Assembly: GCA_021107635.1 (NCBI GenBank)
Contig: JAIOSL010000050.1
Location: 1-54,794 of the forward strand
Origin: an archaeon
Lineage (GTDB): Archaea > B1Sed10-29 > WALL01 > JAGHAM01
Direction of reading: 5' to 3'
DNA length: 54,794 bases
Positions 33,387 through 37,976 of the stretch are shown here, piece by piece. The notes under the pieces were generated by a model, which saw nothing but the letters and a program-made list of their open reading frames with translations, was not told the origin of the DNA and searched no databases. Position numbers and translations under genes: made by a program. The first letter of the stretch is position 1; each line of letters starts with the position of its first letter.

Positions 33387-33972
33387 CGTTTTCTAAGGTT
33401 TCTTGAAATGAGTGCCTCAGGTTTTTCACTATTTTGCTTGAAATCTTGGGATCCATTTTTGATACCAAGTCGCTTGCAATGAAGTGGGTCATCAGGTCCT
33501 TGTGCTTAAGTTCTAGTCTTTTCATTTCTTGATCTAGTTTTTCATGGAAGAAGACATAGTGTTTTTCCATGTGTTTGATTGCTTGGGCTGCTCTTTGAGG
33601 GTCTTTGATCGTTTGTGCTTTTTGAAGGTATTCTTTGTAGACTGTTTTGTAGATTTTTTTGCTCTCTTTTAGTTGTTTATATCTTTTAACTGGATGATCT
33701 GATAGGGTGCTTAAGTGTATTTGGAGCCGTTCCATTCCCCCATGAAACCCGCCTAACTTTTGTTTTAAAATGTCTTCCTTTTTTTCCAATCCTAAATTAT
33801 AGTGGTGTTTAGCATAGTCCTTTTGCATTTTAGCTTGGGTGACGATTCCTGCTTCTTCTGGCACTCCGGGTTGCGGCACCCAGATTATGTTTTTTGGCTT
33901 TAGTTTTTGAGGAACTGGTTTTCTTATTGGGCGTCGTTCAAACGGTTTTTTTGCCTTTTTTGGCCTTGGCAT
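33379..33972 (-). CDS. hypothetical basic helical protein
   Basis: 197 aa, MPRPKK start, GGAGGA RBS. Confidence 0.7.
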   Translation of the reverse strand: MPRPKKAKKPFERRPIRKPVPQKLKPKNIIWVPQPGVPEEAGIVTQAKMQKDYAKHHYNLGLEKKEDILKQKLGGFHGGMERLQIHLSTLSDHPVKRYKQLKESKKIYKTVYKEYLQKAQTIKDPQRAAQAIKHMEKHYVFFHEKLDQEMKRLELKHKDLMTHFIASDLVSKMDPKISSKIVKNLRHSFQETLENGE

Positions 33973-34264
33973 GTTTTCTCCTCCTTTTCTAGTACCTCTT
34001 GGGTTTTGTCGGATTGTCCCTTACTCGTCTTTTTATTCTCTTAACCGGTACCATCTCACCTAATGCTTTAGCAAACTTCGTATTTAAACATTAACTATAG
34101 TCATTCTATATCTCATATAATAACCGATAAAAACGTGCATTCCTAGACGCGCATTAATCTAGTTCTTATCTTAGTAGAGGGGTTTTCCCCTCGGACACCC
34201 TAGTTTGGAAGCGAAAAGCATTCTCCAGAAACACTTGGAGTCATTATTAGAGGTTATATCTTAA

Positions 34265-34633
34265 TCATTCTACCCTTAATGTTGCCACAGCTCTTTCAAT
34301 CCCAGCTACTTTATCAAATCGCTGATCATGCTCTCTTATGGTCACATCCAGATCATATAATCCTGATTTGAGACCATGCTTGCCATAAATATTGAACACG
34401 GCTGTCTTGGTTTCTTGAGAAGACACATAACCAACGCGTATTCTTCTTTCTCCCATTAGACCTGAACGGTCAAATCCAAACTTGGATGGCGCTTTTACTG
34501 TTATAGAATAGCCTCTAGCCTCATCAGTCTTGTTGGTTACAGCTATGTGAAGATTCACCGGGTCTTTTTGTCCAACAATCATTCTAAGTGGAACAAAATT
34601 AGTTCGTATGTACATATTAGAATCATCGTACAT
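34265..34633 (-). CDS. small all-beta (Ig-like) protein without a signal peptide
   Basis: Alternating hydrophobic strands, VTN, GLYDLDVTIRE, C-terminal LRVE. Confidence 0.6.
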   Translation of the reverse strand: MYDDSNMYIRTNFVPLRMIVGQKDPVNLHIAVTNKTDEARGYSITVKAPSKFGFDRSGLMGERRIRVGYVSSQETKTAVFNIYGKHGLKSGLYDLDVTIREHDQRFDKVAGIERAVATLRVE

Positions 34634-34696
34634 GAAAAATACCTCACTATTCTTAGGCTTTCAAGGGATAAATAACTACCGGATAGTATTACTAAA

Positions 34697-34738
34697 GTTT
34701 TTTGCAAAAATGGGGGTGTGAGAGTTAAGTTTTTTGCA
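34697..34738 (+). repeat. 42-bp element, copy B
   Basis: GTTTTTTGCAAAAA-tggggg-TGTGAGAGTTAA-gt-TTTTTGCA; overlaps the stop codon of 34725-35009. Confidence 0.85.
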
Positions 34739-35009
34739 CAGTTGAAATTTTTTCTATCCTGCGAAGCACTGTTTCAAATTCACGGGCCAAATCTTCTCCC
34801 TTTTCTGTTAGCTTGACTATTTTAATTCTACCCTCTCTATCAAAGACCACTAGACCAGCACTAGCAAACTCATCTAGAACATTAACCATATGTGCGTAAG
34901 TACAGTCAACATCCTTAGCTAAAAGAGACGCATACCAAGTACGGTCCTTCTCAGAAAGCGCTACTAGAGCCCTTACAGGCTTTTCATTGATAAAAAAATT
35001 TGATTGCAT
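34725..35009 (-). CDS. MarR-like winged-helix protein
   Basis: YASLLAKDVDCTYAHMVNVLDEFASAGLVVFDREGRIKIVKLTEKG; GGAGG RBS. Confidence 0.85.
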   Translation of the reverse strand: MQSNFFINEKPVRALVALSEKDRTWYASLLAKDVDCTYAHMVNVLDEFASAGLVVFDREGRIKIVKLTEKGEDLAREFETVLRRIEKISTVQKT

Positions 35010-35162
35010 ATACTCATCCTCCAGTTTAAATATAGATTTTTTAATTAATCTATTCTAGTTTATATAATTAACTGTATATATCCAAGTTATTGAAGTCAAA
35101 AAAAGATTTAGAAAAGAATATTTAAGAAAGTATATTTTATAGTTGATAGTGAGAAGTGAAAA

Positions 35163-35571
35163 AAGTGAGAGTTGAGAAAGAAAGAACTAAAAAATGAAAA
35201 AAGGAGTAGAGTGGATAAGAAAGAGTAGGGACAAAGTAGGAAAGTAGTAAAAAGTGAGAATTAAGCAAACCAGAAACATGAGGATATGAGATAATGAAAG
35301 TTAGAACCGGAGAGGGTTAAGATAATAGAGAAAAAGTGAGAGTTACACTAAAAACAAGGAAAAAAGCAGAAAAAACTATAGATCCTTAAACAAGTGAGAA
35401 TTAGAACATATAACAGTAAATAACTAACTAAAGTAGAAAAAAGTGAGAGTTGGCCCCCGTGAGTATCTTTCTAACAACCCTACATTAATGCACCATTAAA
35501 CACCAGCTAACAACACGTAACATTACGTAAAAAAAGTGAGAGTTGACGTAATATTACGTAAAGTGAGAGTT
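35163..35571 (+). repeat. array of seven co-oriented AAGTGAGARTT 11-mers in a long intergenic region
   Basis: Copies start at 35163, 35252, 35334, 35392, 35441, 35534 and 35561. Confidence 0.9.
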
Positions 35572-35611
35572 AGAGCAAAGCCATATAAACTTGTTATGTG
35601 TAAGTGCTTCA

Positions 35612-36328
35612 ATGGGATTGATTGACTGGCTCACAAGAAAGAAAAGTGAGAAAAAGTCAGAATTAAAAAAACAACTTGAGAAGAAACAAGTAAGTGAGAG
35701 TACAGTCACAATCCAAAAAAGTGAGATCCTACCAATAGAAACACCAGATGTCTACTCTCCAACAGTTGAACACCCATTATTGACAATACAAGACAGGATA
35801 TCTAAATTAGAGGAAATCTACCGCAGCCTCAACGAAAAAATAGATAAAAAGGTAGCAACACGTGAAGATACTGATGAACTCAAGGTTTTGGTCGGTCAAA
35901 CCCTAGATAAAAGTAATGATATAATAGGTAATATTACCAATCTTGACCGGAAACTCGCTCTATTAGACGGAAAGAAAGAAGAGTTGACACGTAAAATAGA
36001 CACGTCAACTTACGAGTTGACACAAGATTTAAGCAACCTTCAAAATGTAGAACGCTCTATAAAGCTCTTAGAAGCAGACAAAAAGATACTTGAGGTATTA
36101 GGAGACAAAGAACTTAGCACAATAGAACTCTCAGAAAAATTAAGTTACACAAGACAGTATCTTTGGGGCAGACTAAAGCAGATGCAGGCGGATGGACTAG
36201 TAACGAGCTTTAAAAGCGGAAGACAAACCAAATACATAAAAAATAAAGATAAGCTAAATGACATGACAAATAACACGTCAAATGACATACCACTTGACGT
36301 ATTAGATTACATGTCACATGACGCGTAA
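35612..36328 (+). CDS. coiled-coil protein with C-terminal ArsR-like winged helix
   Basis: Heptad region, then KILEVLGDKELSTIELSEKLSYTRQYLWGRLKQMQADGLVTSFKSGRQTKY; ATG 35612 about 25 nt after CATATAAA. Confidence 0.85.
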   Translation: MGLIDWLTRKKSEKKSELKKQLEKKQVSESTVTIQKSEILPIETPDVYSPTVEHPLLTIQDRISKLEEIYRSLNEKIDKKVATREDTDELKVLVGQTLDKSNDIIGNITNLDRKLALLDGKKEELTRKIDTSTYELTQDLSNLQNVERSIKLLEADKKILEVLGDKELSTIELSEKLSYTRQYLWGRLKQMQADGLVTSFKSGRQTKYIKNKDKLNDMTNNTSNDIPLDVLDYMSHDA

Positions 36329-36388
36329 ACTAGATATTACGTTACATTACGTAAAATATACGCAATACGTGGAAAACAACTAAAACCC

Positions 36389-36412
36389 AGGACCCCCCAC
36401 AGTTCCGGTATT
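36389..36412 (+). repeat. 24-bp inverted repeat, left copy
   Basis: AGGACCCCCCACAGTTCCGGTATT; 21/24 match to the reverse complement of 37953-37976. Confidence 0.85.
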
Positions 36413-36538
36413 CATATACCTGATGTTTCCCGCTAAAAAAAGGAGAGAAAGCACCAAACAAAGACGAAAAGGTTTATATACTCCTTCTGCGTTATACTTC
36501 CTTATTAGCTAGAATGCTAATAGGAACGGGTGAAACCA

Positions 36539-36856
36539 ATGATTCACATTTCAGAGCTCTATGGTATAGATATATACGGAGATGACGGAAAATATGTTGG
36601 CAAAGTAAATGATGTTATACTCAATCTTGAAAAAGGAAGAGTAGTAAGAATCACAACCGAGCCACTCAGGTTTGTTTCCAAGGTTCAAGCCAAGAGCGTC
36701 TTAAAAGAAAAAAGTATACTTTACAAGAATGTTAGAACAGTAGGAGATATCCTAATAGTAGGTAGGGGAAGGAATACATCACCCTCTGATGAAGAAGTTA
36801 AAGTAGAACTACAAAAAAGACGCATGGGAAGAAGCCTTTTGGGGAGAACAAGGTAA
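36539..36856 (+). CDS. PRC-barrel domain protein (CdpB-like)
   Basis: ISELYGIDIYGDDGKYVGKVNDVILNLEKG ... VRTVGDILIV; ATG after GGTGA. Confidence 0.9.
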   Translation: MIHISELYGIDIYGDDGKYVGKVNDVILNLEKGRVVRITTEPLRFVSKVQAKSVLKEKSILYKNVRTVGDILIVGRGRNTSPSDEEVKVELQKRRMGRSLLGRTR

Positions 36857-37024
36857 CCTCCCCAAACATATGAGTCTAAATAACCATATTGGGAGAGGGA
36901 AAGCGGCAATTTATTTCTGATAGTTTATTAAGATAAAGTAGTGAGAACAAGAAAAAAATAAGACGCGTTAAGTACCCTATTTTTTTGGCTTAAATATATA
37001 TATTAGTAATTCAAATAGAATAAT

Positions 37025-37660
37025 ATGCGGTTTAACAAAGAAAAAGCAAAAAAAGAAACAATTAAGCATTGTAGACATCAAATACCCAGATCATCAATTA
37101 GTATAGCAAGACAACTAAAAAAGAAAGTTGCTGGTTTCTATCCAAATTCACCGCCAAAAAAAATAACACCATTAATGAAAAAGAACATTTTAGGTCCCTT
37201 AGAAGAAGACGGTTTTTTAATAAAGTATACACCTGAAAAAACTTCATGGAAAAAAGCAAGATTATTACTAACACTATATCATGAAAAAGGAAAACCAAAA
37301 CCTAGAAAAATCACAGAATTATACCAAACAAATTTTCTATATTTAGAAGACACAGTATTTCCATTGATAAAAAATCTACCAAAACCAGAACCTGAATTAA
37401 ATTTAGATTTAGTTGTTCTACTATCCAAATTCAAAAAAACAGAAACATACACTTGGGACTTACTGAACTTACTCTTAGCAGCAAGTAAAGAAGAAGATCA
37501 GTTGAGGATATATCTCTACAAACTACCAATAGACTACAATAAAATAGAAATCTTAGAAAGAATATTAGAATATGGAAAAGAATACACCCACATACAATTC
37601 CCATTCAAACCAGACCAAGAAAATGCTAAAAATTTCTTACGTAAAATAACTGAATTTTAA
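37025..37660 (+). CDS. hypothetical protein, possible N-terminal winged helix
   Basis: RSSISIARQL ... ILGPLEEDGFLIKY; weak similarity only. Confidence 0.55.
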   Translation: MRFNKEKAKKETIKHCRHQIPRSSISIARQLKKKVAGFYPNSPPKKITPLMKKNILGPLEEDGFLIKYTPEKTSWKKARLLLTLYHEKGKPKPRKITELYQTNFLYLEDTVFPLIKNLPKPEPELNLDLVVLLSKFKKTETYTWDLLNLLLAASKEEDQLRIYLYKLPIDYNKIEILERILEYGKEYTHIQFPFKPDQENAKNFLRKITEF

Positions 37661-37952: not shown

Positions 37953-37976
37953 AATACCGGAAGTAGGGGGGGTCCT
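37953..37976 (-). repeat. 24-bp inverted repeat, right copy
   Basis: Plus strand AATACCGGAAGTAGGGGGGGTCCT. Confidence 0.85.

Follow-up and report, generated by a model that had tools for sequence, protein, structure and literature searches.

An oriented AGTGAG-box array beside a small winged-helix gene: a chromosomal landmark of the Iainarchaeota/Diapherotrites and possible accessory platform of a replication origin

Contig C36 (GenBank JAIOSL010000050.1; 54,794 nucleotides, the whole of which is called the window here) belongs to an archaeal assembly of 1.2 Mb in 60 contigs, which is 88% complete. It carries an array of short, oriented AGTGAG boxes in a divergent intergenic region of ~600 bp between two winged helix-turn-helix (wHTH) genes. 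One of these encodes a small wHTH protein, the other (open reading frame (ORF) 35612) a longer coiled-coil wHTH protein. The array is a unique, polar and phased feature that is conserved among relatives, and it is co-located with a switch in strand composition and with an inverted pair of elements resembling the origin recognition boxes (ORBs) of other archaea. We read it, with a probability of roughly 0.4, as a docking platform for the small wHTH protein at the chromosomal replication-origin region. From these features we infer both the identity of the box binder and the assignment of the switch to an origin rather than to a terminus.

Sequence, polarity and phasing of the boxes

Seven exact copies of AAGTGAGARTT stand on the plus strand at 35163, 35252, 35334, 35392, 35441, 35534 and 35561, at intervals of 89, 82, 58, 49, 93 and 27 bp, and most have an A-run on the 5' side. 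An initial annotation, made from the letters of this DNA alone, had described these one-way copies with their spacings and A-runs, the AT-rich tract next to them, and four near-copies inside ORF 35612 that are read as KSE or VSE; all of this is borne out. Chance would supply 0.14 copies, and none of 100 dinucleotide-preserving shuffles attains seven. Counted genome-wide, as the annotation had proposed, the motif is locally enriched and polar, with only two copies in the rest of the assembly; a reversed control pattern occurs once per strand in the assembly as a whole. The extended form AAAAGTGAG[AGT]GTT occurs four times in the assembly, always within the array. An assembly-wide scan for locally clustered 10-mers finds no second non-coding cluster of a short motif; the remaining k-mer clusters all stem from tandem repeats within coding sequence (periods 12, 105, 135 and 138).

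The extended consensus of the boxes is aAAAAGTGAGaGtt (logo of 86 boxes from 12 loci). AGTGAG is found 86 times forward and 3 times in reverse in the array regions of 12 loci. The spacers between boxes are unconserved, mostly 58-74% purine, and T-poor. Spacings between neighbouring boxes (70 pairs) range overall from 9 to 181 bp and cluster at 27, 39, 49-51, 59-61, 72, 82-84 and 93 bp, the gaps between these values being empty. A period of ~11 bp, offset by half a period, describes them (Rayleigh R 0.45, p ~1e-6). This quantisation suggests a face-of-helix constraint in a DNA-protein assembly, rather than an RNA or coding constraint. Spacings divisible by 3 are somewhat enriched (34/70), partly because in-frame copies in coding sequence (CDS) were counted.

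A hidden coding repeat was tried as an identity and rejected. The seven upstream boxes occupy all three frames and have stop codons between them, so the array is not coding. The four near-copies in ORF 35612 fall within a disordered lysine/glutamate/serine (K/E/S) linker of its product (residues 27-54; predicted local distance difference test (pLDDT) <50). In the related loci L011, L017 and L018 the boxes likewise enter the 5' CDS, each time in the KSE frame. The coiled-coil wHTH ORF of L017 (G003:C1, 1213-2004) reaches upstream across three boxes, each read KSERS, which suggests that an evolutionarily fluid boundary divides the array from the coding sequence.

A role of the array as RNA would fit some of these properties. 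It could be a purine-rich leader or non-coding RNA whose AAAAGUGAGAGUU motifs bind a protein or form an R-loop: the boxes are oriented with the downstream gene and continue into its messenger RNA, the spacers are purine-rich and T-poor as are coding strands here, and a conserved TATA-like element, TATATTTTATAAAA, from which such an RNA would be transcribed, lies 23-50 nt upstream of the first box. However, positions 33500-37500 give no Rfam match at E up to 1, ORF 35612 has its own proximal TATA, and the 11-bp quantisation has no obvious RNA rationale. No conserved secondary structure came to light, though none was looked for. We regard this role as distinctly improbable.

Two repeat classes were also rejected as identities. 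The exclusion of clustered regularly interspaced short palindromic repeats (CRISPR), already made in the annotation on repeat size and spacing, holds: the repeat is 11-14 bp long against 24-48 bp, the spacings vary as given above, and no cas genes lie nearby. Plasmid iterons are regular repeats of ~17-22 bp, whereas the boxes are shorter, irregularly spaced, without a rep gene and chromosomal.

The AT-rich tract beside the array keeps its character across relatives. Its 80-bp GC minimum is 12-26% across 10 loci, including loci of 49-53% GC, and the first box, counted from the start codon of the small wHTH gene, falls at +138 to +162 in all ten loci measured. A conserved TATA-like sequence, GTATATTTTATAG, occupies 35130-35142, and an element like TATATTTTATAAAA is present in most relatives. 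The tract is either a candidate unwinding element or merely the place of divergent promoters. At the other end of the small wHTH gene, the isolated box-like sequence listed in Table 1 sits in a T-run and palindrome context (TTTTTTGCAAAAA...TTTTTTGCA).

Table 1. Features of the window (positions in nucleotides) and residual skew maxima on long contigs of relatives (positions in kb)
Feature	Position	Strand	Details
Isolated box-like GTGTGAGAGTT	34716-34726	+	3' end of small wHTH gene; two mismatches
Small wHTH gene, 94 aa	34725-35009	-	winged-helix domain and one long C-terminal helix
AT-rich tract	35010-35150		between small wHTH ATG and first box, ~150 bp; 80-bp GC minimum 15%
Core box array	35147-35571	+	seven exact copies and a degenerate copy at 35147
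ACGT-centred palindromes ACGTAACATTACGTAA, GACGTAATATTACGTAA	35515-35561		interleaved with last two boxes, just before proximal TATA of ORF 35612
Coiled-coil wHTH gene, 238 aa	35612-36328	+	C-terminal HTH_24 match
In-gene box copies	35644, 35654, 35692, 35719 (35644-35729)	+	first 120 nt of ORF 35612; read KSE/VSE
ACGT-palindrome cluster	36300-36385		spans and trails the coiled-coil wHTH stop
ORB-like element 1	36389-36412	-	AATACCGGAA[CG] match; reads AATACCGGAACTGTGGGGGGTCC on minus strand
ORB-like element 2	37954-37976	+	AATACCGGAAGTAGGGGGGGTCC; ends 3 nt before ATG of ogt-like gene (37979)
Skew maximum, G005:C13	98.7 (raw 100.6)		array at 102.5-103.2
Skew maximum, G015:C2	20.8		array at ~21.9
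Skew maximum, G019:C1	218.9		array at ~216
Skew maximum, G020:C1	209.3		after monotonic 190-kb rise; array at 205.4-205.9
Skew maximum, G016:C8	32.0 (weak)		array at 29.7

Conservation and genomic setting

All 10 other genomes of the order that have an orthologue of the downstream gene carry 2-12 AGTGAG boxes in the orientation of that gene, within at most ~950 bp upstream and its first 330 nt. The 12-mer AAAGTGAGDGTT almost always forms a single cluster per genome in one orientation (11/13 genomes of the order), and reversed controls are near zero. The 12 loci from the remaining families of the class all have GTGAG[AGT]G boxes, in the same orientation, ahead of their small wHTH gene. The annotation had allowed that the tract might be an unconserved purine run; this is not so, as the boxes are kept class-wide. 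As sequence comparison shows, the small wHTH gene, the AT-rich tract and the box array form the invariant module of a single-copy chromosomal landmark of the Iainarchaeota/Diapherotrites class.

The neighbourhood consists of housekeeping genes, among them those for Lhr helicase, translin, an EamA transporter, A-type ATP synthase and purine biosynthesis, with a PRC-barrel gene (36530-36856) downstream. At a distance of 2.7 kb the array has a tRNA-Met gene for a neighbour, and local GC is lowered. These last two features, together with direct repeats that adjoin small wHTH genes and the AspA-like fold of the small protein, would suit an integrated plasmid or virus remnant with iterons or a partition centromere. 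The module is, however, single-copy, its synteny is kept class-wide among housekeeping genes (Lhr, translin, PRC-barrel, ATP synthase), and the spacing is irregular on the iteron scale. No integrase was found in the genome of the window, and none of the 20 neighbouring ORFs scanned encodes Rep, ParA/ParM or a partition nucleoside triphosphatase (NTPase; ParA, ParM, TubZ). The AAA+ (AAA_22) genes that hold the partner position in sister families are not ParA-type. An integrated remnant is very improbable, as conservation on the chromosome across the class all but refutes it. One trait of partition centromeres is present, in that the repeats begin 150 bp upstream of a gene for a small DNA-binding protein with an AspA-like fold. 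The label of an iteron- or centromere-like array, which the initial annotation had given, thus fails in its plasmid sense (the array is core chromosomal, has no Rep or partition NTPase, and its spacing is not iteron-like) and survives as a functional analogy to a centromere- or initiator-like loading array.

Strand-composition switch at the locus

Cumulative GC skew was examined on long locus-bearing contigs after the mean coding-strand effect had been subtracted gene by gene, which leaves a residual skew. In five of six long contigs the skew maximum lies ~1-4 kb from the locus (Table 1). The chance of this is estimated at ~0.04 per contig (±4 kb in 170-250 kb), so a coincidence in five of six is far beyond chance. 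In G005 the GC skew at third codon positions (GC3) is positive on one side of the locus and negative on the other, whichever way the genes are oriented, and the pattern persists when homology is used to verify the gene strands. The locus is very probably a replication switch point, and the landmark at the switch probably marks a replication origin or terminus. Once all loci are turned the same way, the genes of both flanks mostly follow the direction of the boxes. Because the bulk gene orientation does not flip at the locus, it discriminates less between origin and terminus; the ribosomal operons and G005 remain for this purpose. On G015:C2, ~80% of genes lie on one strand over ~160 kb (~50-210 kb), which is unusually strong for an archaeon.

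The boxes might instead be transcriptional operators only, at which the small wHTH protein, the coiled-coil protein or both repress divergent promoters, the position at the skew switch being a coincidence of synteny. The array does lie between the promoters of two divergent wHTH genes, the ACGT palindromes and its final boxes reach up to the proximal TATA of ORF 35612, boxes within the 5' CDS could serve as roadblocks, and MarR/ArsR-like folds are typical of repressors. Yet 5-12 phased sites that take up 300-800 bp, when the intergenic regions of these genomes are tiny, far exceed the needs of autoregulation, and the array is kept where the downstream gene is replaced by unrelated AAA+ genes or a PRC-barrel gene. 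Chance is unlikely to have placed the array at the skew maximum in five genomes, and the strict orientation and 11-bp quantisation suggest a higher-order structure. Operators alone are therefore an improbable account.

ORB-like elements and the position of cdc6

The motif AATACCGGAA[CG] occurs three times in the 1.2 Mb. Two of the copies are the ORB-like elements of Table 1, each with N3, six or seven G and TCC, which lie 0.8-2.4 kb from the array. They are inverted with their G-strings outward, and the pair, of the pattern AATAC[CT]GGAA[CG]-N3-G6-7, brackets the PRC-barrel gene and two small genes. The third copy is in the cdc6 promoter (contig C21:10924), directly upstream of the cdc6 TATA box, and the cdc6 promoter of G005 also carries one. 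This position suggests autoregulation of cdc6 by a factor that binds the element.

G001, G003, G005 and G020 have inverted pairs of the same kind at 1-8 kb from the array; in G005 the skew maximum falls between the two elements. Single or same-strand ORB-like copies are found in two further families. The sequence CCCCCC-N4-TTCCGGTATT is conserved ~100 bp past the stop of the downstream gene in 8/12 loci examined. The euryarchaeal ORB consensus is GTTCCAGTGGAAAC-AAA----GGGGG (PMC1868953), and the elements match it in part: the GGAA(A)C-N3-G-string agrees, whereas the left half-dyad differs.

The cdc6 gene lies 17-40 kb from the locus in 9/9 linkable genomes, on the side of the small wHTH gene wherever the side is resolved. 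The gene of the polD large subunit adjoins cdc6 (read by eye). A canonical origin beside cdc6 was also looked for; the intergenic regions there are 17-270 bp long and contain no repeat cluster, which leaves an origin no usable space. A second, divergent Orc1/Cdc6-like paralogue of 342-383 aa with a weak Cdc6_C match is encoded at G001:C40:63720, G005:C5:47619, G011:C1:71991 and G017:C14:87334. Taken as an alternative origin, the site of this paralogue on G005:C5 has no clean skew switch and no ORB-like elements.

The small winged-helix protein as likely box binder

The small wHTH protein has only weak profile matches (DUF6293_C, HVO_A0261_N). It is found in 22/31 genomes of the class and in 11/11 of the high-quality ones, and its identity across the order is 60-78%, against 30-55% for the downstream coiled-coil protein. 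The AlphaFold2 (AF2) model (pLDDT 91) shows a winged helix followed by a single long C-terminal helix. The best full-length fold matches are AF1382 (template modelling score (TM) 0.81-0.87), AspA (TM 0.66-0.74, at 23% identity) and Sso10a-2, while MarR proteins match the fold in part only. In a more distant lineage (L065, 4001-5110) a homologue of the small wHTH gene adjoins an XerC/D-like tyrosine recombinase gene, and the box array is absent.

The small wHTH protein is most simply assigned to the boxes, and the partner to the second repeats described below, because the boxes and the small wHTH gene are constant whereas the partner and the second repeats co-vary. On this pattern of co-occurrence the small protein is the likely box binder, and the array can be taken with fair confidence as a DNA-level multi-site platform for it. 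The coiled-coil wHTH protein is probably not the box binder, because it is missing in many families that keep the boxes and has TTACGTAA-type repeats of its own. The initial annotation had proposed a loading platform for one of the flanking wHTH proteins; the proposal stands for the small one, which co-occurs with the boxes class-wide and has an AspA-like fold, and not for the coiled-coil one.

Possible architecture, and origin versus terminus

In the proposed binding mode, each asymmetric box of ~14 bp (an A-tract followed by GTGAGAG(TT)) would hold one unit of the small wHTH protein. The units would be arrayed head-to-tail at spacings quantised at ~11 bp with a half-step offset, and the bound units would form one ordered nucleoprotein structure beside the fixed 150-bp AT-rich tract. 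If the landmark is an origin, the box array may organise, mark or tether it, and the ORB-like elements would be where Orc1/Cdc6 works. Beside the invariant module lies a variable second one, which here comprises the coiled-coil wHTH protein with its probable membrane helix and the TTACGTAA-type repeats, and in sister families an AAA+/wHTH ATPase with iteron-like repeats.

That the landmark is an origin is the favoured choice, held at somewhat less than even odds. Haloarchaeal origins lie at GC-skew peaks and have C-rich leading strands (PMC1868953). The switch described here is a maximum too, which is the polarity of haloarchaeal origins and the opposite of that in Pyrococcus and bacteria (PMC1868953). 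A complete Diapherotrite genome has been described with a bacterial-type skew and a predicted origin 'adjacent to a cdc6 gene' (PMC5905446).

A number of observations weigh against the origin reading. By the bacterial and Pyrococcus convention a skew maximum is a terminus. In G015, G019 and G020 the main ribosomal-protein operon (rpl2), 83-103 kb off, is read in the direction of the locus, and forks from an origin here would meet the single ribosomal RNA (rRNA) operon of G015 head-on, whichever way the two contigs of that genome are joined; no rRNA operons were found on the other locus-bearing contigs. On long flanks, 64-80% of genes point toward the locus. G003 has no skew switch, its skew being driven purely by gene orientation, and the window's own genome is too noisy over its 60 contigs, the window showing a shift without a change of sign. 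The AT-rich tract stands 1.2 kb outside the ORB-like pair, so no unwinding element is flanked by ORBs; the genes enclosed by the pair take up 1.5 kb in the window and 1.2-6.8 kb in relatives. Its members could be Orc1-type regulatory sites, because element 2 ends so close before a start codon. The box AAAAGTGAGAGTT shares with the mini-ORB core CCAGTGGAAAC (PMC1868953) the AGTG core and scattered positions, ~5-6/11 in a by-eye alignment, which falls short of a mini-ORB match. The cdc6 gene is on contig C21 here, >35 kb away, and is never adjacent to the array. Orc1/Cdc6 or the partner protein could also bind the boxes in place of the small wHTH protein.

The chief competitor keeps the same platform and places it at the replication terminus, where it would block or trap forks, or else organise the terminus and tether it to the membrane. 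The wHTH genes stand beside their presumed sites, in the manner of RTP-Ter of B. subtilis or MatP-matS of E. coli. The partner would then link the terminus to the membrane or division site by the amphipathic N-terminal helix of the coiled-coil wHTH protein, and a PRC-barrel gene adjoins. At the switch the skew is at its cumulative maximum and G-rich strands converge, in five contigs. In G005 the GC3 skew and its counterpart for A and T (AT3) agree with leading strands of the standard signature that meet at the locus, and both flanks of this genome converge there. The rpl2 operons of the three genomes named above point toward a terminus at the locus, and the rRNA operon of G015 is co-directional only if the locus is one. 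A single-orientation array is intrinsically polar, an inverted ORB-like pair brackets the switch point of G005, and the genes of RTP and Tus have a ter site in their own promoters (PMC10331603).

The means of chromosome dimer resolution bear on this as well. The tyrosine recombinase family PF00589 is not detected in 7/10 genomes of the class (G000, G001, G002, G003, G015, G016 and G019), among them each of the six with a completeness of 90% or more. These archaea therefore appear to be without XerA/dif dimer resolution, and another terminus-handling system would be needed. A dif site was considered for the ACGT palindromes of the window and rejected, as they form no 11-6-11 structure by eye and XerA is absent.

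Against a terminus stand features of the origin type, namely the ORB-like elements with a copy in the cdc6 promoter, the linkage to cdc6 and polD, the AT-rich tract, and the AAA+/wHTH genes with iterons of the sister families. In most genomes transcription on the partner side runs away from the locus, so that this flank would be head-on. No Ter-type system is known in Archaea, and Sulfolobus ends replication by random fork collision (PMC3020120). An inverted skew polarity does exist in haloarchaea (PMC1868953). A terminus is thus tentatively placed second to an origin. A dedicated archaeal terminus system, in which the phased polar array, the AspA-like wHTH protein, the ORB-like pair and the membrane-anchored coiled-coil wHTH protein would act as fork trap or organiser in a lineage without Xer/dif, is less likely than not.

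Under either reading the landmark is defined by sequence, is class-wide and sits at a replication polarity switch, and it has not been described before in these organisms. It names candidate proteins: the small AspA-like wHTH protein, the coiled-coil wHTH protein with a membrane helix or the AAA+/wHTH ATPases, and Orc1/Cdc6 at the ORB-like sites. An origin would have an unusual architecture, with an accessory platform, ORB-like elements that bracket genes, an unlinked initiator gene and an inverted skew. A terminus would be a new kind of system for Archaea and the first Ter-like system outside Bacteria. To our knowledge, the origins and termini of DPANN archaea are without experimental characterisation, and we know of no site-specific termination or terminus-organising system in any archaeon. 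Either way, replication and segregation in uncultured ultra-small archaea become directly testable.

Comparison with known systems

Adjacency of orc1/cdc6 is usual but not obligatory at archaeal origins. The locus resembles the ORB-containing oriC of Pyrococcus, Sulfolobus (oriC1) and Haloferax (oriC1) in its large repeat-rich intergenic region within a compact genome, its AT-rich tract, the inverted pair with GGAA core and G-string, the strand-skew switch, and the replication genes near it. It differs in that the boxes run one way, do not flank an unwinding element and match the mini-ORB weakly. The ORB-like pair also brackets genes, cdc6 is 17-40 kb off or further, and a small wHTH gene is tied to the array at a fixed distance. 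Bacterial oriC regions contain DnaA boxes whose oriented sub-arrays support head-to-tail oligomers. The likeness to such clusters lies in asymmetric boxes of 9-14 bp, irregular spacing and an adjoining AT-rich tract; the domain of life, the initiator and the box sequence are different, and the likely binder here is a non-ATPase wHTH protein.

Among partition systems, AspA of pNOB8 (PDB 5k5q, 4rs8) is the closest in protein fold. AspA binds a palindromic site and then spreads, and it is encoded in an aspA-parB-parA operon. Both proteins are wHTH proteins of ~90 aa with one long C-terminal helix and sites directly upstream of their own gene, and a higher-order nucleoprotein structure would be expected for both. 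In contrast, the sites here are asymmetric and discrete, number 5-12 copies, have no ParB or ParA gene adjacent, and are chromosomal and class-wide. The parC of plasmid R1 consists of multiple 11-bp direct repeats upstream of the ParR gene, which double as an operator and in which helical phasing matters. Short direct repeats upstream of a gene for a small DNA-binding protein are common to both. The parC units are contiguous, whereas the boxes stand apart, without a ParM-type NTPase and on a chromosome.

RTP of Bacillus subtilis is a winged-helix protein that terminates replication, and its gene is under autoregulation through a Ter site beside it. As in this system, a small winged-helix gene adjoins its presumed sites, one of the RTP sites being in its own promoter (PMC10331603), and the sites are polar. 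By the standard convention the locus would also be the skew-defined fork convergence point, and an opposed ORB-like pair brackets the switch. The two proteins are unrelated in sequence, and the 50 best fold matches listed for the small wHTH protein do not include RTP. RTP acts at paired A/B half-sites, whereas a long single-orientation array is found here.

In MatP-matS, RacA-ram and Noc-NBS, as here, a coiled-coil DNA binder could link a chromosome region to the membrane or to division, and a PRC-barrel gene is adjacent in the window. The sites of those systems are spread over hundreds of kb, whereas all lie within ~3 kb here, and membrane binding of the coiled-coil protein is suggested by its N-terminal sequence MGLIDWLTRKK and the conservation of this sequence.

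The coiled-coil partner and the variable second module

The coiled-coil wHTH protein begins with the amphipathic helix MGLIDWLTRKK, conserved as MGxxxWLxKK. The disordered K/E/S linker follows, then the segment VYSPxVEHPLLTIQDRISKLEE, a helix of 80 residues and an ArsR-like wHTH domain. The AF2 model has a pLDDT of 78, and the VYSPxVEHPLLTIQDRISKLEE segment is conserved among orthologues. A fold search with this protein returns only generic ArsR/SmtB wHTH matches. Orthologues are present in 10 other genomes of the order, from four families, and the protein family is confined to these archaea, with ~30 clusters in 5.8 billion proteins and generic annotation only. The N-terminal helix probably binds the membrane; the resemblance is to membrane-targeting helices of the MinE and Noc type.

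Different families have different genes beyond the array. In this order and two other families the gene there encodes a coiled-coil wHTH-like protein, in two families a 391-aa AAA+ (AAA_22) protein with a C-terminal wHTH domain, in two more a second AAA+ type that is Arch_ATPase-like, and in one family the PRC-barrel gene follows directly. The AAA+ partner P0151 has no sequence match in the PDB and no BLAST similarity to Cdc6, and its profile matches are weak and ExeA/DnaX/DnaA-like. A second family of tandem repeats varies with the type of partner: TTACGTAA/TGACACGTCA are found here, and GCGTGTAA, ACGAGTAA and TTAGTCAA elsewhere, TTAGTCAA in 17-18 copies. These second repeats sit directly upstream of the partner gene or around it.

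The ACGT-centred palindromes among the last boxes of the window belong to a family that also stands upstream of the orthologous gene in L010, L012, L013, L014 and L062. The clusters that follow the stop codon in relatives contain 3-12 copies, with tandem cores 11-12 bp apart in L061 and L012; the core spacings in L061 are 11, 12, 11, 11 and 11. The contig of L061 is closed and 1.17 Mb long (ERZ10759799 NODE_1), with the locus at ~769 kb. The coiled-coil wHTH gene is bracketed by TTACGTAA/TGACACGTCA ACGT palindromes in the window and in L010-L018, L061 and L062. In the sister families (loci L076-L086) the AAA+/wHTH gene is preceded by dense iteron-like repeats of its own, an arrangement that resembles an initiator-plus-iteron module.

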